64,000 bases of DNA from Synechococcales cyanobacterium OTE_70_metabat_200 (GTDB lineage Bacteria; Cyanobacteriota; Cyanobacteriia; Cyanobacteriales; Chamaesiphonaceae): the NCBI GenBank assembly GCA_031375385.1, contig JANMHS010000012.1, forward strand, positions 1,691-65,690. Direction: 5' to 3'. This document shows, piece by piece, positions 3,703-55,365 of this stretch. Position numbers and translations under genes: made by a program. Below the pieces are notes generated by a model. The model was not told where the DNA came from and did not search any database. It saw only the letters and a program-made list of their open reading frames with translations. The stretch's first letter is position 1, and every line of letters begins with the position of its first letter.

Positions 3703-4854
3703 CTAGCTGGGCAAAATGCCACTGCGACTAAGGGTGCGGTCGATCTGCTCCAACAGGGCAAAGTCAGCAGCGGGCAACTGGCGACCTTTGGTCAGAAAGC
3801 CGAAAGCCTGTCGCCAGTCATCCCGATCGGCGGTGATGGGAGCCGCCAAGTGGCAGGAGATGATCGTCTGAAAATCCCAAGCTGCCACCCGTTCCACCCA
3901 AGCCAGGGTTTGGTCGGGACTACGATTCAAAATGAGCTGCTGTAAAATGGGGGCAACCAGGGGCCGACCTTCGTTGCAAATGGCCTGAAAAGATTGCTCC
4001 CATTGGTTTTGCCAGTGGAAGGGATAGAGACCAAAAAAGGCTCGGCGAGAGCGATCGGACGCGGAGCCAGCGGCCTGGAACATGGGCAGGGTACGAGCAA
4101 TCTCCAAACAGTCCGGTCGGAAATAGAAGGTAAAGAGTACGACTCGTTGCCAGCCCCGGCGGCGGTTCTCCAGGGTATCTATAATTTCTTGATCCCCGCG
4201 CTCCCGGGCGTGGAAAAGGAGGGGATAGGGATCGAGCTGGACGATCGGGGGCGGTTCTGAAGGCACGGAAACGATCACATCGGTGGTCAGCAGGATTTGG
4301 AACTCTCGATCGAACAGTGCCACCTCCGAGAACTTGCCGATCCCCAGATGAATGGGTTCTAGGATGGCTAGATCAAAGCGATCGCCAAAGGGATGTTGGT
4401 CTTCGGTTAAAACTTGAGTGCGCCCCCTGGGCAGTCCTAGCCAACTCAGCGGCAAGTTCAACGGAAAGCTCCACTGCTCCGGGGCCACATAGACAGTGGC
4501 GCTGGGATAGTGATGGGCAAAAGGCCCGACAAAGACCTTGTGTTCTAGGCCAGAAATGGTGGGCAGAATAATATGCCTAACATCTCCATACTGAGCCACT
4601 AGTTCATCCACTAGCTGTAAGCATTCGGGCGTGGGGGCGATCGGAGCGTAGATTAGCAATCCGCCAGTTTTCAGGCGCAGCACGGTCATGCGCAGGGGCG
4701 TGACCACATAGAGCACCCCTTGAATTTGCTCGCAGACCCACACCCACTCCGGGACAATGGCTTGGCGGAGGGTGCGGCGTTGGCCGTAGGGATAGAGGGG
4801 CACGGGCCACCACCAACGCCATTGCCAATCGGGGGATGAGACTGCGGACTCCAA
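3703..4854 (-). CDS. Conserved hypothetical protein, DUF4336-like
   Basis: 383 aa ORF with a W-rich N-terminus (WQWRWWWPVPLYPYGQRR) and an overall pattern recalled from the cyanobacterial/plant DUF4336 family. The family assignment is from memory only. Confidence 0.55.
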   Translation of the reverse strand: MESAVSSPDWQWRWWWPVPLYPYGQRRTLRQAIVPEWVWVCEQIQGVLYVVTPLRMTVLRLKTGGLLIYAPIAPTPECLQLVDELVAQYGDVRHIILPTISGLEHKVFVGPFAHHYPSATVYVAPEQWSFPLNLPLSWLGLPRGRTQVLTEDQHPFGDRFDLAILEPIHLGIGKFSEVALFDREFQILLTTDVIVSVPSEPPPIVQLDPYPLLFHARERGDQEIIDTLENRRRGWQRVVLFTFYFRPDCLEIARTLPMFQAAGSASDRSRRAFFGLYPFHWQNQWEQSFQAICNEGRPLVAPILQQLILNRSPDQTLAWVERVAAWDFQTIISCHLAAPITADRDDWRQAFGFLTKGRQLPAADFALLEQIDRTLSRSGILPS

Positions 4855-43131: not shown

Positions 43132-44711
43132 ATTCTTGGGAAACTTGTGTAGCTACGGCCCTGATAGGGGTGAATCGACAATTGCCGAATATTAATCCGC
43201 CCCATCCAGCGACCGAGAGCTACCATGCACAGCTGCAGGCTCAGCCACCGGGCACCCAGTTGTTATCGATCGCCAGCCTATTATCGGCCTATCAAAAAGC
43301 CGGTCACCAGCTCGCGACCGGTCAATCTCAACTGGCCCCGGCGGCTCCCCAAGATCTACCGCCCTGCGAGGATCGGGCTGCTGATTACTGTCAAGCAGTA
43401 TTGGTGGAGCGAGGGACTACCCAGAGCCGTCAACTGTTGCCGGAATTGCTGGAATTACTGGGCCAGGCCAATCGATCGGTTCCCTACCAACTATTGCCTG
43501 CGCTGCTGGACTGGGGGCACAGCGAACCCGTTTTGCGATCGGCGATCCTGCCAATCTTGGGCAATCGTGGTCGGTGGCTGGCCGACCAAAATCCTCGCTG
43601 GGCCTATGGGCGGGCGGCAGGGGACATGCCCAACGATCTGGCCGCCCGTCAGGAGCAATGGGAGAATGGCCATCTCAACGAGCGGCTGGCAGCCCTCCAA
43701 GCTTGGCGAAGAGAGCAGCCCAATGAGGCTCGGCAAGCTCTGGGTCAGTGTTGGAATCAAGAAAAGGCTGGCGATCGCCAGAGCTATTTAGCAGTGCTAG
43801 AGATCGGATTGAGCCAAGAGGACGAGGAATTTCTGGAAAAGGCTTTGTCCGATCGGGCCGTTGGGGTACGTCAGAAGGCGGCCAGTCTGTTGGGCCAGTT
43901 TCCCAGCCGCTACCGCCGCCGGATCGGTCAAATTGCGGTGCAGTGGCTGCATATTGAGGCTGGAGAACAGGGTTGTCGGGCGCAGGTAACCCTGCCGAAG
44001 ACGGTGCAGCCCGAATGGCTGGAAGAGGGCTTGAGCGATCAACCGCCCCAGGATAGTTTGTTGGTGACCGATGTGCCTAGCTGGCTGTTGTTGCAGGTTC
44101 TGATTTCGACGGATTTATATCGGTGGGGAACAGATTTGGATGTGACCCCAGAATCGTTGATTCGGGCAGTGTTGAATCTGCGCCATCACAATGTACTGAT
44201 TCTGAGCGGTTGGGTAACGGCGGCGATTCAGCAGCAGCGCTTGGATTGGATGCGGGCTTTGCTGGATGCGGGGGGGAATTTGTTGCCGGAGGCAGATCTG
44301 TTGAAGTTGTTGGCAGCTTTGCCGAATAATAAGGAACGAGAGCATTATTTGCTGCGTTTATTGAGGGTCGATCGACCCTCGGCGGAAGTGGAGCGATCGA
44401 TATTGCTCTTGCTAATTAATTTTTCAATGGTCTGGAGTGAGGAGCTGAGCCAAGTTGTCGTTCAGAAAATCGGTGGCTATCTACGGCGCGGTGGCGACCG
44501 TTGGCAGGCCGGAGATGAAGACTATCACCGGCTATGCTTAGAAGCGGGCTACCAACTCCATCAAAACCTATTACCGGCGATGGTAGAACTGCGTGCCCAC
44601 TTCCAAGAAACCAAAATTCGCCATCAGCAGCCCCTGGATAAATGCATCGAAATTCTGGAATTCTGTAGTGCAATGCGGCTAGCCTTCCTCGATGCCCTGC
44701 CTAGCTGCTAG
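43128..44711 (+). CDS. DUF5691-like protein (usual partner of the SWIM protein)
   Basis: 527 aa helical/HEAT-like protein (..ERLAALQAWRREQPNEARQAL..AVGVRQKAASLL..). The family call comes from recollection of the SWIM-DUF5691 gene pair. Confidence 0.55.
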   Translation: MNSWETCVATALIGVNRQLPNINPPHPATESYHAQLQAQPPGTQLLSIASLLSAYQKAGHQLATGQSQLAPAAPQDLPPCEDRAADYCQAVLVERGTTQSRQLLPELLELLGQANRSVPYQLLPALLDWGHSEPVLRSAILPILGNRGRWLADQNPRWAYGRAAGDMPNDLAARQEQWENGHLNERLAALQAWRREQPNEARQALGQCWNQEKAGDRQSYLAVLEIGLSQEDEEFLEKALSDRAVGVRQKAASLLGQFPSRYRRRIGQIAVQWLHIEAGEQGCRAQVTLPKTVQPEWLEEGLSDQPPQDSLLVTDVPSWLLLQVLISTDLYRWGTDLDVTPESLIRAVLNLRHHNVLILSGWVTAAIQQQRLDWMRALLDAGGNLLPEADLLKLLAALPNNKEREHYLLRLLRVDRPSAEVERSILLLLINFSMVWSEELSQVVVQKIGGYLRRGGDRWQAGDEDYHRLCLEAGYQLHQNLLPAMVELRAHFQETKIRHQQPLDKCIEILEFCSAMRLAFLDALPSC

Positions 44712-45745
44712 CAATTTCTGGCCGCAGTCCACCGCCATTTTTGGAGATTAGTCCGGCGGCTAATAATATTACGAATAATGTTCACCCGCCGATAGCCATT
44801 GAGCTGAGGTGTATAGCGATCGACCACATCATAATTAATTTTCAACGACTCTTGGCGGTGTTGTTGCAAAAAACAATGCTCATTGCTATCTATTAAAAAA
44901 GTTTTTTCGCCCCCGGCTGTGCGGATCTTTGCATAGAAGTAATCACCTTCTACTAAGCCAATAAATCTACCGGTGATAGCCTGTGAGGCAAAAACTTGGT
45001 CGGGAAATATCTGGGTACTTTGCGCAAGTGGGCTGGGTGGCGAATCACTTAGAAATTCCTGTAATACCTTGTCATCATAAGTATAGTAAATTCGATTGTA
45101 CTGATACTTCTTTGCTGGCAATTCAAAGCCGGGAGGTGATTCGCGGTATAGGTCACGATTGAAGCGAAAAGTGGTTTTATTGCCTTCTTGGGCAACCAAT
45201 ACATGGGGCAAGATACTTTGTTTTACCAGATTTACTGGTAAATGGCCCACGGCTTTCATCATGTTTTGCCGAAAGGAAAAAACCTGAACCCCAGCAAAAT
45301 CATCGAAGTTTTCCTCAGCCAGAATCATTAGTGAACCTTGCTGGGGATGTCGATAAAATTTGGGCTTTATCCCCCAAATCTCCATGCTGCCAGTGGATTT
45401 AAAGCGAACCCCCGACACCCCATTGTTGGTTTCGATTAAAAATAATCGCAAGCCATAGGCAGCAGAAGTGGTCTCTTTGCCGATCGCCACACACAGAGTT
45501 TTGGCGACTACGGCACAATTATGGGCGTTATCAATATTGCGCTGATCATCCATCAGGGCATTCTCGATATTGAGTTGTGCTAAATTGACTTTGATGCGAA
45601 CTGGCTTAATTTCTTGGTAAGCGATCCCGTAGGACGGGTACTCCCGTATCGGCTGCACCTCGGCCAACACCGGTGGCATCGCCAAGTATCCAAATAGAAC
45701 GATGCACCAGCTCCCGGATTGTCCCACTAGAGTCTTGAACTTCAT
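44708..45745 (-). CDS. Secreted hypothetical protein
   Basis: A signal peptide begins at MKFKTLVGQSGSWCIVLFGYLAMPPVLA. No family was recognised. Its stop shares the CTAG tetranucleotide (44708..44711) with the convergent gene's stop. Confidence 0.55.
   Translation of the reverse strand: MKFKTLVGQSGSWCIVLFGYLAMPPVLAEVQPIREYPSYGIAYQEIKPVRIKVNLAQLNIENALMDDQRNIDNAHNCAVVAKTLCVAIGKETTSAAYGLRLFLIETNNGVSGVRFKSTGSMEIWGIKPKFYRHPQQGSLMILAEENFDDFAGVQVFSFRQNMMKAVGHLPVNLVKQSILPHVLVAQEGNKTTFRFNRDLYRESPPGFELPAKKYQYNRIYYTYDDKVLQEFLSDSPPSPLAQSTQIFPDQVFASQAITGRFIGLVEGDYFYAKIRTAGGEKTFLIDSNEHCFLQQHRQESLKINYDVVDRYTPQLNGYRRVNIIRNIISRRTNLQKWRWTAARNC
45623..45651 (-). repeat. 29-bp dispersed intragenic element, copy 3
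   Basis: The reverse complement reads CGATACGGGAGTACCCGTCCTACGGGATC. It is translated as PIREYPSYG just after the predicted signal peptide. Confidence 0.8.
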
Positions 45746-45812
45746 AATTGGTCGGAAATATTTTAGCGCTATGATAGCATCACGCACCAAACTTGCCAGA
45801 CATAGTTTTCAT

Positions 45813-47306: not shown

Positions 47307-48452
47307 CTACTGACGCACCGTCGTCAATCCTTCCTTGGCAGCCCAGAGGCTGAGGTCTTGGCGGCTGAGGGCAGCGGCCATCAGATCGGGGAAGCGATCG
47401 GGTGTACAGGCAAAGGCCGGACTGCCGAGCGCAGCAAAGAAGCTGGCGTTTTCGCGATCGAAGCAGGGCGCGCCATCGTCATTCAGGGCTAACAAAGTAA
47501 TTAGCTGGACACCGGAAGCTGCGATCGCGGCGGCGCGTTTGCGCATTTCCGCTTGATTGCCACCTTCATAGAGGTCGCTAATGAGCACCATGATCGTTTC
47601 TTGGGGTTGGCGGACTAGACCTTGGCAATAGCTGAGGGCCCGGTGAATATCGGTGCCACCGCCGAGCTGAGTCCCGAAGAGCACATCCACGGGGTCTTGG
47701 AGCATTTCGGTCAGGTCTACTACTGCGGTGTCAAAAACCACCATCTGGGTTTTGACGGCAGGGATGCTAGCCAGCACCGCAGCAAAAATGCTGGCATAGA
47801 TCACCGAGGTAGCCATGGAGCCGCTTTGGTCCACACAGAGGATGATATTTTTGAGGGCCGATCGGCGACGGCCATAGCCAATCCGCGTCTCAGGGATAAT
47901 GGTGCGGTAGGCGGGTTGGTAATGGCGCAAGTTGGCCCGGATGGTGCGGTTCCAGTCGATTTCCGTGTGGCGCGGGCGACGGTTGCGGGTCGATCGATTT
48001 AGGCTGCCGCTCACGGCTTGCTGCATGGGGTTCTGGAGTTTGCGCAGGAGTTCTGCGACCACTTTGCCCACCACCAACCGCGCCGTTTCCTTAGTGATAG
48101 CTGGCATCACGTTACTCAGAGACAGAAGATTGGCCACTAGATGCACGTCGGCTTCCACGGCCTGCAGCATCTCTGGCTCTAGGAGCATCTGTTGTAAATT
48201 CAGGCGCTCTAGGGCATCCTGTTGCATCACCCGCACGACAGAGCTGGGAAAGTAGTTGCGGATATCGCCTAGCCAGCGGGCGATCTTGGGGGCAGAGCGA
48301 GCGAGGTTGCCTTGGCGGTTGCCCTGATCCTGTTCGTAGAGAGCCGCCAGGGCCTGTTCCATCCGCTGCTCATCTGTGGATAGTTCCGCTGTACAGCCGC
48401 TAGCTCCCCCTAAAATTAGTCGCCAGCGTTTTAATCGATCGGTATCGCTCAT
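47307..48452 (-). CDS. VWA-domain protein (CoxE-like; usual member of SWIM/DUF5691/MoxR-type clusters)
   Basis: The MIDAS-type motif is [10 protein letters not shown], with a C-terminal vWA fold. The start is set at [10 protein letters not shown] (48452) because homology with the duplicated fragment at 50956..51083 ends exactly at this ATG. The ORF track start is 48527. Confidence 0.75.
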
Positions 48453-48650
48453 CAGGAAAGCTCGACAATTTAGAAACTCCATCTCTAATGCCTCCGGCAG
48501 GCTATGCCAACAGAGTGGAGAGGACAAAAAATTTACTAAAAATTATCCCATCCTGGAACCAGATTAACCTGATTCGTGAAACCTTGCACCCCCATCTGAG
48601 CTAGCATGGTTCCAGAATTCCGTTCCTGGCCATTCAGTAGTTCGGTCACC

Positions 48651-50789
48651 ATGCTAGAAAAAACCAACCAAAAACCATTATCTATTTTACTAATCAGTAT
48701 TCACGGACTGATTCGCAGCTATGATCTGGAGTTAGGTCGTGATGCCGATACAGGCGGACAAACCAAATACGTAGTGGAACTGGCTAAAGCTCTCGCCAAA
48801 CAACCAAATGTAGAATGTGTTAATTTAGTCACACGGCAAATCATTGATGATACGGTCAGTCCCGATTACAGGGCTGCAACTGAGGCCCTCAGCGATAATT
48901 CTCAAATAGTACGGATCGCAGCGGGGCCTAATGCTTATATCCCCAAGGAAGAATTATGGGGGCATCTGGATGGTTTTACCGATCGGTTACTTACTTGGTT
49001 ACATACTCAATCTCGCTTACCCGATATTCTGCATAGTCATTATGCAGATGCTGGTTATGTCGGGGTACGCTTGTCCCATTTAACCGGATTACCCCTCGTT
49101 CATACGGGTCATTCGCTCGGACGTGACAAGTTCCGCAGATTGCTGGCTCTGGGGATGGCAATGGAGCAAATTGAGGAACGCTACCATATGCTCCAGCGGA
49201 TTAGTGCCGAAGAAAACACCTTAAGTACAGCTGAGCTGGTAATCACCAGCACTTTCAATGAAATTGAAGATCAATACAAATTATATGACTATTATACGCC
49301 CGAGAAAATGGCAGTCATTCCACCAGGAACCGATTTAGACCAGTTTCATCCACCTGTCGGCGAGGCCGAAGATATCGACTTTCAAGAAACATTGGCCAAG
49401 TTTCTGTTCGACCCGGACAAACCAATTATCTTGGCTTTATCCCGACCAGATGAGCGAAAAAACATTGTGTCACTTCTGGAGGCATATGGCCAATCTTCTC
49501 GATTGCAAAAATTAGCAAATTTAGTGATTATTGCAGGTAATCGCGATGATATTCGCGAACTAAATGAAGGTGCCCAAAGTGTTTTAACTGAACTATTGTT
49601 AGTAATCGATCGCTATGATCTGTATGGGCGGGTGGCACTTCCCAAACATCACAAATCCAGTGAAGTAGCAGATATTTATAGGTTAGCGTCGGCATCCAGA
49701 GGGGTGTTTGTCAATCCGGCTCTGACTGAACCGTTTGGGTTGACTTTGTTAGAAGCCGCAGCAAGTGGATTACCATTGGTAGCGACGGAGAATGGTGGCC
49801 CGGTAGATATTATTGGCAATTGCCAGAATGGTTTATTAATTGATCCATTAGATGAACAGACAATTACAACAGCATTATTAACTATTCTTGAAGATGCGAC
49901 GCTGTGGCAGCAATTCTCAGGAAACGGCTTAACAAATGTTGCTAAGTTCTATTCCTGGGATGCTCATGCTAAATCTTATTTACAAAAAGTCCAGTCCTTG
50001 ATATTACGGCAGATACCATCACCTACGCCAGCAGCATCACCTAAAGCCGGACAATATCGACGACGGGCACTATTTACAGCGCTCGACAATACCCTATTAG
50101 GTGATAATGAGGGCTTGGAGCAGTTTGTGCAAGTTGCCCGTCAAGAGCAGCGCAAGTTCTTGTTTGGTATCGCTACGGGGCGGCGGTTAGATTCAGCCCT
50201 GAAAATCTTCAAACATCATGATATTCCCAACCCAGATGTGCTGATTACTAGCCTAGGTACAGAGATTTATTACCTTCCCGAATTGGGAGCCGATGTTGCT
50301 TGGAAAAATCATATTGATCGAGGCTGGACTCCGAAAGTTTTGCACCGGATTATTGACCCGCTGCCTGGTTTGAAACTGCAACCGAAGAGAGAACAAAGTC
50401 AGTTTAAAATTTCTTATTATTACGATGCCAATGTCGCACCCTCCTTAGAAGAAATTTTGACTATCTTGCGGCAACAGGAAATATCAGTCAACACTACTCT
50501 CTCCTTCGGTCAATATCTCGACTTTGTGCCTTCTAGAGCATCCAAAGGTCTGGCCTTACGCTATGTTGCTAGACAGTGGAACATTCCTTTAGAGCGGTTG
50601 TTAGTAAATGGTGGTTCTGGTGGAGATGAAGACATGCTCAGAGGTGACACCCTTGGTGTGGTCGTGGCAAATCGCCATCACGAAGAATTATCGATGTTGA
50701 CTGATACGGAGCGGGTTTATTTCGCAGAAGGTGCCCACGCTTGGGGCATCTTAGAAGCGATCAAACACTATGATTTTTTTAATTTATGA
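48651..50789 (+). CDS. sps: Sucrose-phosphate synthase (GT-B glycosyltransferase domain plus SPP-like HAD domain)
   Basis: The N-terminal part reads LLISIHGLIRSYDLELGRDADTGGQTKYVVELAKAL...GHSLGR...EPFGLTLLEAAASGLPLVATENGGPVDI. The C-terminal HAD-IIB-like domain reads ALFTALDNTLLG...GGSGGDEDM. An alternative ATG lies at 48606. Confidence 0.9.
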   Translation: MLEKTNQKPLSILLISIHGLIRSYDLELGRDADTGGQTKYVVELAKALAKQPNVECVNLVTRQIIDDTVSPDYRAATEALSDNSQIVRIAAGPNAYIPKEELWGHLDGFTDRLLTWLHTQSRLPDILHSHYADAGYVGVRLSHLTGLPLVHTGHSLGRDKFRRLLALGMAMEQIEERYHMLQRISAEENTLSTAELVITSTFNEIEDQYKLYDYYTPEKMAVIPPGTDLDQFHPPVGEAEDIDFQETLAKFLFDPDKPIILALSRPDERKNIVSLLEAYGQSSRLQKLANLVIIAGNRDDIRELNEGAQSVLTELLLVIDRYDLYGRVALPKHHKSSEVADIYRLASASRGVFVNPALTEPFGLTLLEAAASGLPLVATENGGPVDIIGNCQNGLLIDPLDEQTITTALLTILEDATLWQQFSGNGLTNVAKFYSWDAHAKSYLQKVQSLILRQIPSPTPAASPKAGQYRRRALFTALDNTLLGDNEGLEQFVQVARQEQRKFLFGIATGRRLDSALKIFKHHDIPNPDVLITSLGTEIYYLPELGADVAWKNHIDRGWTPKVLHRIIDPLPGLKLQPKREQSQFKISYYYDANVAPSLEEILTILRQQEISVNTTLSFGQYLDFVPSRASKGLALRYVARQWNIPLERLLVNGGSGGDEDMLRGDTLGVVVANRHHEELSMLTDTERVYFAEGAHAWGILEAIKHYDFFNL

Positions 50790-50842
50790 TTCAAAAATTC
50801 ATAGCTGGCAAAGTTAGTACACCTAGGAGCATGACAAATCCA

Positions 50843-50910
50843 TTAAGATTCCGGACTAGTCGCAGGGCCTGTTGCATTAGGCTGGGTCTTCGCTTCCGCA
50901 ACAGGGCCTT
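50843..50910 (-). pseudogene. Fragment homologous to the 3-prime end of the 529 aa membrane-protein gene (53776..)
   Basis: It encodes ...GPVAEAKTQPNATGPATSPES*, compared with the real C-terminus ...PVAEAESRLSEQTKPNVSGPATSPEA*. The shared DNA is TTCCGGACTAGTCGC.GGGCCTG...CATTAGGCT.GGTCT. Confidence 0.75.
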
Positions 50911-50955
50911 TGGATATGTCAAAAACTACCATGACCGCAGGGATGGCGATCACCA

Positions 50956-51083
50956 TGATCCTGTTCGTAGAGGACCGCCAGGGCTTGTTCCATCCGCTGC
51001 TCGTCCGTGGATAGTTCCGCTGTACAGCCACTAGCTCCTCCTAAAATTAGTCGCCAGCGTTTTAGGCGATCAGTATCGCTCAT
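50956..51083 (-). pseudogene. Fragment homologous to the first 43 codons of the VWA gene (48325..48452)
   Basis: My base-by-base alignment gives 118/128 identical. It encodes [42 protein letters not shown], compared with ...ALAALYEQD in the intact gene. Homology stops at the ATG. Confidence 0.85.
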
Positions 51084-51144
51084 CTCAGATCCACCCCAAA
51101 AGCCCTCCGATTCCAGGTCTTTTCGGAAAGCCTTGGGCGACACG

Positions 51145-51175
51145 GCTGACAAAATTCACTTTTGTCAGCTTCTTT
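51145..51175 (+). terminator. Hairpin with T-rich tail
   Basis: GCTGACAAAA-TTCAC-TTTTGTCAGC forms a perfect 10-bp stem, followed by TTCTTT. Confidence 0.4.
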
Positions 51176-51337
51176 CCACTGAATTGAGATTGCAGTCTTA
51201 CACCCCGCCTTACCCTCAGCGTAGAGCCTCGAACACGAGTTTAAAGATCTAATGGTACAATAGGAGATATCGGCAGAGCTTCTCAATACGAGGATTGATC
51301 TCAGCCACCTTGGAATCTCCAGATCGTTGAAAATACT

Positions 51338-52759
51338 ATGCGCTTACAAAGAGTTCAAGTCCCTAACTTCCGAGTCCTCAAAGACATTGATATCACCTTT
51401 GAGCAGCATCGCATTCCGCAGATTTTTCCGTTAGCTAGCCAGAATGGTGGTGGCAAAAGCACTCTATTACAACTGATTTTCGCACTATTGGCTGATGGTG
51501 GTGATAAAGCTGGACTTATTGAGAATCTCTTGCTCAACTCCGAAAGAAAGATTTTCATTAATAGCTCTAAGTTGTCAACTATCGAATTAGTAGACAACGG
51601 AAATCTCGTCAAGCTCGATTTTGAATTCTACGACAACATCACTCTCCATGATAACTTTTTAGTTGAATTAAATAAAAATGCAGAAGCGAGTCAAATAAAC
51701 AAACTCAGAGAAAATGGAATCAATAGATATAGTAATATAGTTGATTCACTAGTAAATGACACTCTAAGATTAGAAAAAGAGATAGAAGATCACAAGCAGA
51801 GACTAGAATCAGAACAGAGGACTAATCCGTTAGCACCCAATATGCCACGAGGAGTCCTCCAGGATATCCTCAATAATCAATCACCAGGACAGCTAATAGA
51901 ATCAATCAAACAACGTATCAACAGTTTCCAGGCAAAGCTGCAAAGTCTACAAAGAGAAATTGAGTTGTCTCGTGACCTTTTGAGCAAAGCAAAGACAATG
52001 CTTTTGTCTCAAGGTATCCATATCATCTATTCTAAAGATGGCATGAACTTGGTCTGCAAAAGCACCAGCCACAATCAGGATTGCGATCTTATTGATTCCC
52101 TAAAGAAGACTTCGGAGCATGTATTCATGGCTGCGCCTAGTAGTCAAGTTTTCTTGTTCCTCCCTCCAGAAGATTTGGCTTTACTATTCAAAGGAACAAA
52201 CGAATATTACAATGCTCTAACAAAAAAGCAAGAAGCCATTAAGAATTTATTTCTATATGAATTCTCGATGGTAAAAGTTTTGACTGATGCTTTCGGCAAG
52301 GCATTCGAGAATGATAGAGCACAAGCCATTAAGAGTGGCGGAACCTATGGTACTGAATTCGCATCACTCCTTGATGACCTAAAGAATTTTTTCCATGGAA
52401 AAACCATTCAGCCATCTGAGGATTTATCTCGAATAATTATTGGGCAACGAGATAGCAATGACCAGGAGGTAGAACTTAATCCAATTGACTTGAGTCATGG
52501 GGAGCTGAGACGACTAGCTTTCTATGCATGGCTAAAAACCAACAAGATCAAAAATTCTATTGTATTGATAGATGAAATAGAAATTGGGATGCATCCTGAT
52601 TGGCAATATCAAATTGTTCGAGATCTCGAAACTTGGGAGCCAAGTAATCAATATATTCTGGCGACCCATTCCTATGAAGTTTGCAGTGCCCTTAGCCCTG
52701 CCCATGTCAAAGAAATTGAACCGAAGCTATTGAAACCTGAGCTTCAGAAGGCTCAATAG
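51338..52759 (+). CDS. ABC-type ATPase with coiled-coil insertion, AriA (PARIS)-like
   Basis: 473 aa: LQRVQVPNFRVLKDIDITF, Walker A SQNGGGKSTLL, a central heptad-rich region of about 120 aa (..RLEKEIEDHKQRLESEQ..QAKLQSLQREIELSRDLL..), the signature-like LSHGELRRLAFYAWL, Walker B IVLIDEIEIGMHPDWQ and the H-loop LATHSYEV. Confidence 0.7.
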   Translation: MRLQRVQVPNFRVLKDIDITFEQHRIPQIFPLASQNGGGKSTLLQLIFALLADGGDKAGLIENLLLNSERKIFINSSKLSTIELVDNGNLVKLDFEFYDNITLHDNFLVELNKNAEASQINKLRENGINRYSNIVDSLVNDTLRLEKEIEDHKQRLESEQRTNPLAPNMPRGVLQDILNNQSPGQLIESIKQRINSFQAKLQSLQREIELSRDLLSKAKTMLLSQGIHIIYSKDGMNLVCKSTSHNQDCDLIDSLKKTSEHVFMAAPSSQVFLFLPPEDLALLFKGTNEYYNALTKKQEAIKNLFLYEFSMVKVLTDAFGKAFENDRAQAIKSGGTYGTEFASLLDDLKNFFHGKTIQPSEDLSRIIIGQRDSNDQEVELNPIDLSHGELRRLAFYAWLKTNKIKNSIVLIDEIEIGMHPDWQYQIVRDLETWEPSNQYILATHSYEVCSALSPAHVKEIEPKLLKPELQKAQ

Positions 52760-52764
52760 CGATC

Positions 52765-53739
52765 ATGGATATCGAACAGCACTGCTTCAAGATCATTCAA
52801 TCACCTCGGATTCGCGATCGCATTATTATTCTATGCGAAGGTGACACCCTTGATCCTACTAGATTATCTCCCTCTGCCTATGCCAAAAACGAACATCTAC
52901 CCGATGCAAACTTTTACAAAGCCTGTCTGACACAACAATGGAGAAATCGGCTCCCTATTTTTGTCAACTCAGGTAGCCGATCGCAAGTCATCCAAACCTA
53001 CCAATCCATCACAGAAATTCATTCGCAGAATCCCGGAATCTCATATCTCACCCCGGACAAAGTCTTTGCACTCTTGGATATCGATTTGCAATCCGAAGAT
53101 CTGAGCGGTTACCTATTCGCTAGCATTGACGAAGCTTTCCAGGATTTATTTACCCATGGTCGGGTCAACATCGATCGCATCAAAGACCACAAAATCTGGT
53201 TTACAGGCTTCATTCACAAAGAAGCCTATTTCTTAGCTCCAGAGCTTCAGGAATTCTTCAATGACTTGAAAAGTGTCAGCCATGATGAAAACTGTGCCTA
53301 TCAAAATAACCCCTTGGATTTAAATGATATTTATCAACACATAGCCCAAGACATCAGCAAAGACAAAGATCTTGCCAATACCAGAAATTGGCCTCGGGCT
53401 AAAGATCGCATCAGGCATTGCAATGGGCTGGAACTCGATAGCCCAGAAAGACTACAACAATCTTGGCAAACTCAATGGTCAAAAGCAATACAAGATCCTG
53501 ATCGATTGCATCAACTCATTTATGCCTTGCTCTCCATCCGCAAAGCCAAACCCTACTGGGAGCAAATTCATCCAGGGGATGAACCATCAACAGAAAACTG
53601 CGAGGAAGATTGGCGATCGTTCCGAGAAGGTATTGCCCTAAAAATCGGTCGCCAATTTTACTCTCGTCAAGAAGGGAAGCCCCATCAGCACTTAGCTTGC
53701 TTTTTCAACTATCTCTATCAGCTAGAGCATGGTCAATAA
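52765..53739 (+). CDS. DUF4435/TOPRIM-like protein, AriB (PARIS)-like
   Basis: 324 aa starting 5 nt after the ATPase stop. The N-terminal TOPRIM-type Glu motif is IIILCEGDT, followed by PDANFYK, FVNSGSRSQV and the acidic motif ALLDIDLQ. This is the order expected for DUF4435. Confidence 0.6.
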   Translation: MDIEQHCFKIIQSPRIRDRIIILCEGDTLDPTRLSPSAYAKNEHLPDANFYKACLTQQWRNRLPIFVNSGSRSQVIQTYQSITEIHSQNPGISYLTPDKVFALLDIDLQSEDLSGYLFASIDEAFQDLFTHGRVNIDRIKDHKIWFTGFIHKEAYFLAPELQEFFNDLKSVSHDENCAYQNNPLDLNDIYQHIAQDISKDKDLANTRNWPRAKDRIRHCNGLELDSPERLQQSWQTQWSKAIQDPDRLHQLIYALLSIRKAKPYWEQIHPGDEPSTENCEEDWRSFREGIALKIGRQFYSRQEGKPHQHLACFFNYLYQLEHGQ

Positions 53740-53775
53740 TCTGGAATTTTCGACATAGGAGAAGAGCAGGTTAGT

Positions 53776-55365
53776 CTACGCTTCCGGACTAGTCGCCGGG
53801 CCTGACACATTAGGCTTGGTCTGTTCGGAGAGTCGCGATTCCGCCTCCGCTACCGGGCGATTCTCATAGTGAGAGGCTCCAGCCAGGTCAGCCCCATCCA
53901 ACAAGGGTTGCTCTGGCTGGATCTCCTGAGCCAGCTTAATCCGGCGAGTCCGGCCATACCAGCGCGGCGTAGCCAACCAGCCGATCGACATCAACGCCGC
54001 CAGCCCAATGATCGGTCCCCGGTATTGGCCCAGCAACCCAAAAACCGGCAGCACCAAGCCCACTAGAGCAGCCAGCGCCACATTGGCTGCTACCTGCCGC
54101 TGACGAGCCAAACCAATCCCCATCACAATTACCAGAGCAGTCAAACCCAACCACAGAGTTTGGGGAGTCAGATAAGGCAACACATAATCCGTGCGCATCA
54201 ACCGACTGCCATAGGTTAGGGCCGAAATCAAGGCCAAGAAGACTCCCGCGCTAGCCGTCATGTCCCGCAAGCCCAAAGGCATCGCCATGAGCAACAGGGC
54301 CAGCCACCAGAGCCAGAGCGCCGGAGCGATCGACAACAATCCAGGCAAAATACCCGCTTGCGGATCGGCCACCATCTTAGTGCCAGCCCCAAAGGGCCGA
54401 TCGACCGCAGCATTATCCCCAAAGACCCAAGTCAGCACCCTATTGCTACCCTTGTTCTCCACCTGAGTCGGCATCAGGCTCCCAATGCCATCCACATTCT
54501 TCAGGTTAGTCTCGATCGCCAATTGCAGTTTAGAAAGCAGTTGGCCCTGAGTGCGATAGAGCCAGCGGGGCGAACCTTGCCCCCGATAGTTGACCTGAAT
54601 TTGGCCCGTAGCACCGGGTGCTAGGGTGAGCGGGAAATTGTAATCGCTGCCCTGTTGGGGCAAGATCCGTTGGCCATCCTTTTGCACCGTAAAGTTTTCC
54701 ACCACCCCCAGACCTTGGGGTGGACGCATTTGCAAGAGTAGAGTGCTGTTGGCCGCAGCGCTAGCCGTATTCTTGATTTGATAATTACCGGCAAAGTCAA
54801 TCTCCGCCAGATTCCTGTTCTCAGTGGCAATCATCTTCAGGCGCAGGTTAGAAGCACTGGGCAACATGATTTTCTTCACGGCCTTGCTGTCTTGGACTTT
54901 CACTAACTTGCCATCGAGCTGGGTGTTGTAGCTATAGGGTTCCGTAGCCGTGTACTCAATTTGGGGAGCAGCCTGCTCGATCGCGCTAGTGACCACCGGG
55001 CCACCAAATCTAGTCTGTTCCCAAACTTGGTAACGATTAGCCAAGGTACCACAGCAGAGGAACAGTCCGACGCTGAGGATAGCAATGAGAGCAGCAGTTT
55101 GCAGCAGTTGCAGCAGCTCCGTATAGCGAATCGTCCAGCGATCGAGCACGACCACTGCAGAAACTTGCTTGGGCTTGAGGCCAAAATTGATCAAGGCCAA
55201 GGCCATGCCTAGGCCGATCACCAGCAGAGCCAATACCACCAGCCCCAGGCCGAAGCTGCTGGCGATCGAAATCAGTTGGTTGGTTTGGGTGAGGTCTGGC
55301 AACTTTGGCAGACTGATGGCTGGCAAAGCCAGAGACCAAACTCTAGCGGTAAATACAATTGGCAT
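53776..55365 (-). CDS. Polytopic membrane protein with a large extracytoplasmic domain, hypothetical
   Basis: 529 aa ORF with N-terminal TMs, a soluble middle region of about 230 aa and several C-terminal TMs. No family was recognised. Confidence 0.6.
   Translation of the reverse strand: MPIVFTARVWSLALPAISLPKLPDLTQTNQLISIASSFGLGLVVLALLVIGLGMALALINFGLKPKQVSAVVVLDRWTIRYTELLQLLQTAALIAILSVGLFLCCGTLANRYQVWEQTRFGGPVVTSAIEQAAPQIEYTATEPYSYNTQLDGKLVKVQDSKAVKKIMLPSASNLRLKMIATENRNLAEIDFAGNYQIKNTASAAANSTLLLQMRPPQGLGVVENFTVQKDGQRILPQQGSDYNFPLTLAPGATGQIQVNYRGQGSPRWLYRTQGQLLSKLQLAIETNLKNVDGIGSLMPTQVENKGSNRVLTWVFGDNAAVDRPFGAGTKMVADPQAGILPGLLSIAPALWLWWLALLLMAMPLGLRDMTASAGVFLALISALTYGSRLMRTDYVLPYLTPQTLWLGLTALVIVMGIGLARQRQVAANVALAALVGLVLPVFGLLGQYRGPIIGLAALMSIGWLATPRWYGRTRRIKLAQEIQPEQPLLDGADLAGASHYENRPVAEAESRLSEQTKPNVSGPATSPEA

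Follow-up and report, generated by a model that had tools for sequence, protein, structure and literature searches.

Integrative and conjugative elements (ICEs) and cis-mobilizable elements (CIMEs) are known to accrete in tandem at a single att site. Homology-facilitated illegitimate recombination (HFIR) combines one homologous with one illegitimate end and occurs in natural transformation of Acinetobacter baylyi, Streptococcus pneumoniae and Pseudomonas stutzeri (summarised in PMC3240628). Restriction-modification complexes insert with long target duplication (Nobusato et al. 2000, cited in Furuta et al. 2010, PMC2853133); target repeats in this class measure 30-400 bp, mostly in naturally competent species including the cyanobacterium Microcystis. 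Here we describe a locus in a stretch of 64,000 nucleotides (the window) from contig JANMHS010000012.1 of Synechococcales cyanobacterium OTE_70_metabat_200, in which two unrelated accessory gene units, termed cargos, are stacked between the same two core neighbour genes. Read on the minus strand, the order is a gene for a 529-amino-acid membrane protein (the 529 gene), an AAA ATPase plus a 324-amino-acid partner (cargo 1), a 5' stub of a VWA gene, a filler of 33 nt, a tail stub of the 529 gene, sps (cargo 2) and the intact VWA gene.

The locus is a scar that additive recombination left in a natural genome; such recombination is known, and the locus is not a new kind of element. With HFIR it shares one homologous exchange, one illegitimate joint, a competent host (ComEC and DprA are present here) and no need for a mobility gene. 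Unlike in canonical HFIR, the joint lies inside an anchor gene, with duplication of a flank stub and without any loss, and a filler of 33 nt stands against the 3-10 bp of microhomology. As in Campbell-type insertion-duplication, including that by re-circularised linear DNA (PMC3240628), direct repeats flank the insert and both cargos are kept; yet there is no sign of a circular vector or an integrase here, and the usable homology is 140 nt at 90% identity. Defence genes without mobility genes and direct target repeats are also features of long target duplication (PMC2853133). That class has near-identical copies of one target, whereas the copies here are alleles diverged by 10-15% with a synonymous bias, two flank segments are duplicated in stagger and two cargos are stacked. 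ICE/CIME accretion likewise places two units head-to-tail in one slot with a repeated flank between them; in contrast, this locus has no integrase and no att core, and its repeats are the coding ends of two different genes.

Origin of the VWA stub

A repeat search of the window returned two direct repeats. D1 pairs 48313-48453 with 50944-51084 (141 nt, 90% identity, spacing of 2631 nt), and D2 pairs 50844-50889 with 53777-53822 (46 nt, 85% identity). D1 flanks the filler, the 529 stub and sps; D2 flanks cargo 1, the VWA leader and the VWA stub. This is the direct-repeat feature of single-crossover integration. The layout of the original prediction, L-cargo 1-R' followed by L'-cargo 2-R with the 529 gene as L and the VWA gene as R, was borne out by this search and by the gene calls.

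A whole-genome self-BLAST showed no such pair besides D1 on this contig region; D1 therefore does not stem from a dispersed repeat family. Its VWA portion extends to nt 140 of the gene (50944) and contains exact runs of 25 and 23 nt. The 529 tail repeat is poorer. Extended, it covers 41-68 nt at about 85-88% identity with an indel of 18 nt and a longest exact run of ~15 nt. The stub aligns in frame to its own stop with an 18-nt gap (...PVAEA, gap, KTQPNATGPATSPES, stop, against ...PVAEAESRLSEQTKPNVSGPATSPEA, stop). D2 is not a chance similarity because 39 matches in 46 positions at a fixed offset have a probability of ~1e-17 per offset by our own estimate.

Next, the VWA stub was compared with the intact gene. 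The earlier count of 118 identities in 128 positions (48452..48325 against 51083..50956) was exact on direct counting, with one of 42 residues changed. Over the full 140 nt there are 14 differences, distributed over codon positions 1, 2 and 3 as 2, 1 and 11 (P = 7e-4 against an even spread). When differences were polarised with five outgroups, eight changes were placed on the branch that leads to the stub alone, seven of them synonymous (P = 2e-4 with 23% synonymous changes expected at random, 4e-3 with a generous 35%). Therefore the stub was part of a working gene elsewhere for essentially all of its divergence. This pattern of substitutions marks it as a functional gene end which evolved under purifying selection in another lineage, as had been predicted. 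Two derived sites (TGTACAG, GGAACT) are common to the stub and the intact copy against all outgroups; the other lineage was therefore a close sister.

The shared derived sites also agree with a purely local history, i.e. an in-situ tandem duplication of the segment 529-tail/spacer/VWA-start (~250-290 nt), two independent cargo insertions into the spacer copies and local divergence, in which intact copy and stub would be close relatives as well. A dead 5' stub, however, should drift neutrally, against seven synonymous changes out of eight at the probabilities given above. Such a history would further need three events, with an exact replacement of a spacer copy by sps. The synonymous bias on the branch of the stub led us to reject this model, which we consider extremely improbable.

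The two VWA copies also differ upstream of the start codon. The original prediction let the homology end exactly at the start codon on one side and at the stop codon on the other. Between the two copies in the window this holds, i.e. matching starts at the ATG, and the 529 stub ends at its stop. Against relatives it does not hold for the stub copy, which keeps a leader of ~74 nt (51084-51157). This leader matches that of the VWA gene in the relative L127 (local alignment window 51157..50947; blastn 89% over 189 nt), and L128, L130 and L043 share its core motif. No similarity to any relative, either by blastn or in the alignment of VWA upstream regions, was seen for the sequence that precedes the intact VWA gene; it stands in place of the conserved leader, which is lost there. 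Because the leader is on the stub copy only, one parental allele would have combined the defence pair with the ancestral leader, and in the other sps would have abutted the VWA start codon. The leader has no Rfam family; it may be a regulatory 5' region. A terminator-like hairpin with a T-run lies right at the illegitimate joint (50953-50921, minus strand), and both the last bases of the VWA stub and the filler contribute to it. It could stop transcription from the orphaned leader, although terminator and promoter scans overall were at chance level.

The 529/VWA slot in relatives

In L043, a Logan assembly, the slot is empty: the 529 stop is followed after 35-44 nt by the VWA ATG. L043 and the window share 80.6% of nucleotides over 6 kb of upstream synteny, 80% of amino acids in 529 and 90% in VWA. 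A perfect palindrome GCGATCGC of the highly iterated palindrome 1 (HIP1) type is located at ~9240 of L043, where the VWA stub breaks in the window (50944-50952, GTGATCGCC). HIP1-like sites may mark the joint.

The other relatives have different neighbours. The 529 orthologue of L042 is 84% identical, and the upstream synteny pheA-DUF1997-TM2-VanY is conserved among the 529 orthologues. 3' of 529, L042 has an unrelated convergent open reading frame (ORF), L044 and L046 have GT2 and L-PSP genes and L045 has other genes; no VWA gene follows 529 in any of these four. The VWA orthologues of L127 and of L128-L130 are 96% and 92% identical, respectively. 5' of VWA we found a 181-amino-acid ORF and a radical-SAM gene in L127, small ORFs and GH57 in L129 and Transglut_core2 in L130, and no 529 gene precedes VWA in these three. 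The adjacency of 529 and VWA is therefore specific to a lineage, synteny breaks at their junction, and the junction can be empty. These closer relatives came from a large protein collection. Species-representative genomes of the genus (529 at most 44% identical, 529 and VWA on different contigs) were too distant for comparison, and a scan of metagenome contigs with VWA returned relatives at no more than 76% identity, which was uninformative.

The genes that flank VWA in L130 (AKR-MlaE-Transglut_core2) and 529 in L044 and L046 (GT2, L-PSP, GidA) are located elsewhere in the source genome (C78:19291-21917 and C117:50831-53604). Thus, the 529/VWA adjacency, which is shared with L043, is itself the product of an older rearrangement. 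On the other side of the VWA gene the window has panB and then a KDPG aldolase gene, in the same order as L129 and L130. Directly after the aldolase gene, at 44708-45790 (minus strand), is a 360-amino-acid ORF of 43-45% guanine-cytosine (GC) content with no Pfam or NCBIfam match, which may be another foreign insert. In L127, the closest VWA relative, a block of ~8 kb (L127:5745-13957) follows VWA instead of panB. It encodes two small ORFs, an 899-amino-acid ORF, an AAA_22 protein, GmrSD_N and an AAA_15/DUF3696 ATPase; in L168 the genes after VWA are CbiQ/CbiN. Hence the surroundings of VWA vary on either side.

Table 1. Parts of the tandem locus (positions in the window) and gene-end stubs on other contigs of the same genome.
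Feature	Position	Strand	Remarks
Intact VWA_CoxE gene	47307..48452	minus	381 aa from ATG at 48452; Pfam PF05762, E = 9e-52
sps-VWA divergent intergenic region	48453..48605		VWA-upstream alignment; blastn against relatives
Cargo 2: sps, bifunctional sucrose-phosphate synthase / phosphatase-like	48606..50789	plus	727 aa, ~45% GC
529 stub	50843..50910	minus	last ~22 codons + stop of a 529-type gene; 6-codon deletion; diverged from intact tail
Filler at illegitimate joint	50911..50943		33 nt
VWA stub	50944..51083	minus	codons 1-46 of a sister-lineage VWA allele; break directly 3' of HIP1-like GTGATCGCC
Conserved VWA leader	51084..51157	minus	~74 nt, kept by the stub copy only; alignment to L127
Cargo 1a: ABC-type AAA_15/AAA_21 ATPase, AriA/PtuA-like	51338..52759	plus	473 aa, 36-43% GC
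Cargo 1b: partner, remote AriB-like Toprim protein	52765..53739	plus	324 aa
Intact 529-aa multi-pass membrane protein gene	53776..55365	minus	family unassigned; downstream of pheA (prephenate dehydratase)
Thioredoxin-like gene with stub	C113:100819-102429		cargo: 232-aa ORF; stub 94.6% identical; differences 1, 0, 7 by codon position
Gene-3'-end stub	C25:14305-16553		cargo: Schlafen/AlbA_2 + HATPase_c_4 gene
Gene-3'-end stub	C94:65225-66589		cargo: YhgA/Transposase_31-like (YhgA/Rpn-like) gene
Gene-3'-end stub	C37:197626-199903

Routes to the tandem

The locus is best explained as two alternative alleles of a single variable slot that became fused. 529 and VWA are neighbours in the lineage of this genome and L043. 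Two sister lineages would each have gained their own foreign low-GC cargo in the gap: the AriA/AriB-like pair, with the VWA leader kept, in one, and sps, at the expense of the leader, in the other. DNA would then have passed from one lineage into the other, most likely in linear form through natural transformation, and would have been added, not swapped. At one end homologous recombination would have taken place in a flank gene, with a long anchor in 529 or VWA; at the other end the DNA would have been joined illegitimately inside the resident copy of the same gene region. The joint runs from VWA codon 46/47, directly after the HIP1-like GTGATCGCC, through the filler into the last ~22 codons of 529. 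In the product each flank gene is intact once and the 5' VWA stub and the 3' 529 stub are stranded between the cargos; a second cargo would thus have been gained with the first one kept. Such an additive import of sister-lineage DNA with another cargo, linear and of the HFIR type with an illegitimate joint inside the anchor homology, is our tentative preference, at somewhat less than an even chance. The linear route and the single-event history are what we infer.

In every model one illegitimate joint (VWA nt 140, filler, 529 tail) has to be combined with a single homologous exchange. A linear route gives the same product as a Campbell event and is independent of short, diverged homology. It fits the gene content of the genome, which has ComEC (PF03772, 194 bits) and DprA (PF02481, 247 bits) and no Ku. 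It also fits the site, at which there is no Rfam family and no tRNA; no tyrosine integrase is present on the contig and no plasmid, phage or integrase genes are near the locus.

A scar in a relative bears on the choice of route. L128, a contig of the Joint Genome Institute (JGI 3300079090), has it at the other, 3' end of VWA, with repeat copies at L128:1231-1334 and 4720-4823. The order there is intact VWA, GmrSD_N, an AAA_15/AAA_21/DUF3696 ATPase, a 296-amino-acid ORF, a VWA 3' stub, a DUF5615/DUF433 pair and panB. The stub of 104 nt is 82% identical, ends at its own stop and contains exact runs of at most 17 nt; differences by codon position are 3, 1 and 15. This scar is better explained by a linear route because its stub is too diverged for a crossover in short homology.

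The original prediction had proposed Campbell-type capture of the PARIS-like unit, i.e. of cargo 1. In general terms, a single crossover would have integrated a circle of ~2.63 kb, closed at the joint of VWA codon 46, filler and 529 tail. The topology fits exactly, the spacing of D1 being 2631 nt. Partial duplication of a locus is a documented experimental signature of single crossover with re-circularised DNA (PMC3240628). The VWA repeat offers the exact runs of 25 and 23 nt, and a crossover at about nt 55-77 would be compatible with the polarised changes. To yield the observed order the crossover has to lie in the VWA 5' repeat if the circle carries sps, and in the 529 tail repeat if it carries the PARIS-like pair. 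The latter repeat, short, diverged and interrupted by an 18-nt indel, is too poor and a crossover in it is implausible for RecA, which makes capture of the PARIS-like pair unlikely. Usable homology is confined to the VWA repeat; therefore a Campbell event could have brought sps only. In this respect the first reading is refined: the Campbell route is feasible in the 140-nt VWA repeat, with sps incoming, and not in the form proposed. Even there, 140 nt at 90% identity are marginal for RecA, and the analogous scar of L128, with its lower identity and shorter exact runs, favours a route independent of short homology. Furthermore, transforming DNA enters single-stranded, the genome lacks a Ku that could circularise it, and genes of plasmids, phages or integrases are missing nearby. 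Since a linear route gives the same product and suits L128 better, we regard the Campbell event as a serious but rather doubtful alternative.

Several observations weigh against the linear HFIR-type import that we prefer. Microhomology of 3-10 bp is missing at the joint, and the filler (50911-50943) stands there instead; by fuzzy search it has no second copy anywhere in the genome. HFIR joints without homology are documented (3/4 joints, PMC3240628), therefore such microhomology is common and not universal. Canonical HFIR products couple the insertion to a deletion, not to a duplication of the anchor, and partially duplicated homologous loci in experiments with E. coli were ascribed to single crossover with re-circularised molecules (PMC3240628). 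A net loss of recipient DNA is not visible at our locus; any replaced recipient segment would be substituted by its donor homologue. Sliding identity along VWA (against L127-L130 and L043) and 529 (against L042-L045) gave no mosaic break, therefore neither the anchor nor the direction of transfer was located. Of the states of the intergenic slot that the original prediction expected in relatives, the empty one exists in L043; sps or the ATPase pair alone between 529 and VWA was found in no relative, nor was a donor- or recipient-like genome with a single cargo, the other relatives having different neighbours. We infer the two cargo alleles from the tandem itself only. Lastly, contiguity across the joint is that given by the assembly.

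The last point leads to the question of a chimera. The source genome (G000 in the analysis, the window being on its contig C19) was assembled from a metagenome and consists of 141 contigs with 2.4% contamination. In such a fragmented genome two co-existing strains could have been joined by the assembly, and both flanks would be common to strain variants that differ in cargo. Yet a strain bubble would not yield truncated stubs connected via a unique filler, and copies diverged by 10-15% are not expected to collapse or to be mis-joined at usual k-mer sizes. The filler is present just once in the genome, and the same type of scar exists in the independent contig L128. On account of the diverged copies, the unique filler and the L128 scar, a chimera appears very improbable.

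A further possibility concerns the copies of the chromosome. Cyanobacteria commonly are polyploid and allelic replacement by transformation segregates slowly. Unequal exchange between chromosome copies might have occurred in a cell which was transiently heterozygous for the cargo alleles after allelic replacement; alternatively, a tandem duplication of one allele might have been followed by replacement of one copy. The staggered joint L...R' L'...R has the exact look of a tandem duplication joint, and both cargos would be kept. Against this, two events and selection for an unstable intermediate are needed. By sequence the outcome equals that of the fusion of alleles described above. We judge this variant unlikely.

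Cargos and similar scars

The GC content of both cargos is 36-48% compared with 55-60% in the flanks (GC profile). The flanking 529-amino-acid protein has no Pfam match. In sps both domains, synthase and phosphatase-like, scored above cut-off (TIGR02472, 657.4 bits, cut-off 576; TIGR02471, 305.8 bits, cut-off 209.75). It has no orthologue in 11 same-genus genomes. The nearest relatives are in two lower-GC genomes of a sister genus (79-81% amino acid identity), and the homology to them is confined to the ORF.

The closest described system for cargo 1 is PARIS (phage anti-restriction-induced system), composed of the ABC ATPase AriA and the Toprim nuclease AriB (PMC9122126, PMC11464382, PMC12409363). 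Its defining anti-phage activity is tRNA cleavage when a phage trigger is sensed. The ATPase matched Pfam AAA_21 at 7e-15 and AAA_15 at 1e-12. The AriA models of PADLOC matched over the full length (1e-15 to 4e-14), and PtuA models scored higher, over the C-terminus. The 324-amino-acid partner has no Pfam or PADLOC match, neither to DUF4435 nor to the PADLOC AriB model. Its family comprises 109 proteins; DUF4435 matched five of 40 members weakly, at best with E = 0.009. Invariant motifs in the family are E25-G26 and D105xD107, which are Toprim-like. An AlphaFold2 model of the partner had a predicted local distance difference test (pLDDT) score of 94.6. Foldseek against the PDB placed two AriB chains on top, 8v46_D (E = 0.015, probability 0.80) and 8ux9_A (E = 0.074); these matches are weak with a template modelling (TM) score of ~0.30. 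A profile search of PDB sequences with the family returned no AriB and nothing meaningful. The family is present in 25 of 401 cyanobacterial genomes, each time (25/25) with an ATPase homologue directly upstream.

Cargo 1 thus resembles PARIS in being an ATPase-first two-gene operon with an ATPase of the AAA_15/21 type, in the E-G and DxD motifs, in the AriB top folds and in its patchy spread. It is unlike PARIS in that the partner lacks the DUF4435/PADLOC AriB match and reaches a TM score of just 0.30, and the ATPase scores better against PtuA over the C-terminus. Family profiles and the structure model point to a remote AriA/AriB-like pair with a predicted anti-phage role, which is not a member of PARIS by current models. 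The AriA/AriB-like assignment of the original prediction therefore stood as a remote one. Equally, its view of both cargos as accessory held, with sps in 0/11 congeners and the pair in 25/401 cyanobacterial genomes; distribution and composition support that both are patchy, foreign and of low GC.

A whole-genome self-comparison of the source genome revealed diverged copies of gene ends 0.6-2.5 kb beyond the intact gene, in which homology stops at the stop codon; for the four loci listed in Table 1 the distance is 0.9-2.1 kb. A synonymous bias among these stubs was seen on contig C113 only; those on C25, C92, C130, C94, C24, C37 and C106 showed no third-position bias and, by this pattern, may represent ancient stubs in decay or duplications that are truly local. 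Two further candidates were rejected, C42 as a dispersed palindromic mini-repeat that runs past the stop and C61 as tandem paralogues. Stacking without an integrase, instead of swapping, could be a recurrent route by which accessory and defence islands grow at gene ends in these cyanobacteria; we put this forward with low confidence. Besides the tandem locus, the scar in L128 and those at four or more further gene ends of this genome (C113, C25, C94 and C37) would be instances of it. An incoming gene end of a sister lineage would push the resident end aside as a stub, and alternative cargos would pile up in tandem. Joints may be favoured at HIP1-like sites or be helped by recombination-promoting nucleases.

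The locus is a clean natural case. The scar records the gain of a second accessory unit while the first was kept and both neighbour genes remained unbroken. The joint is resolved to the base, a relative supplies the empty site, and statistics show one of the stubs to be an imported allele. The locus is thereby tied to the little-studied class of long target duplications and to HFIR. If recurrence at other gene ends is true, it would help to explain how defence islands grow in competent bacteria without integrases at those sites.

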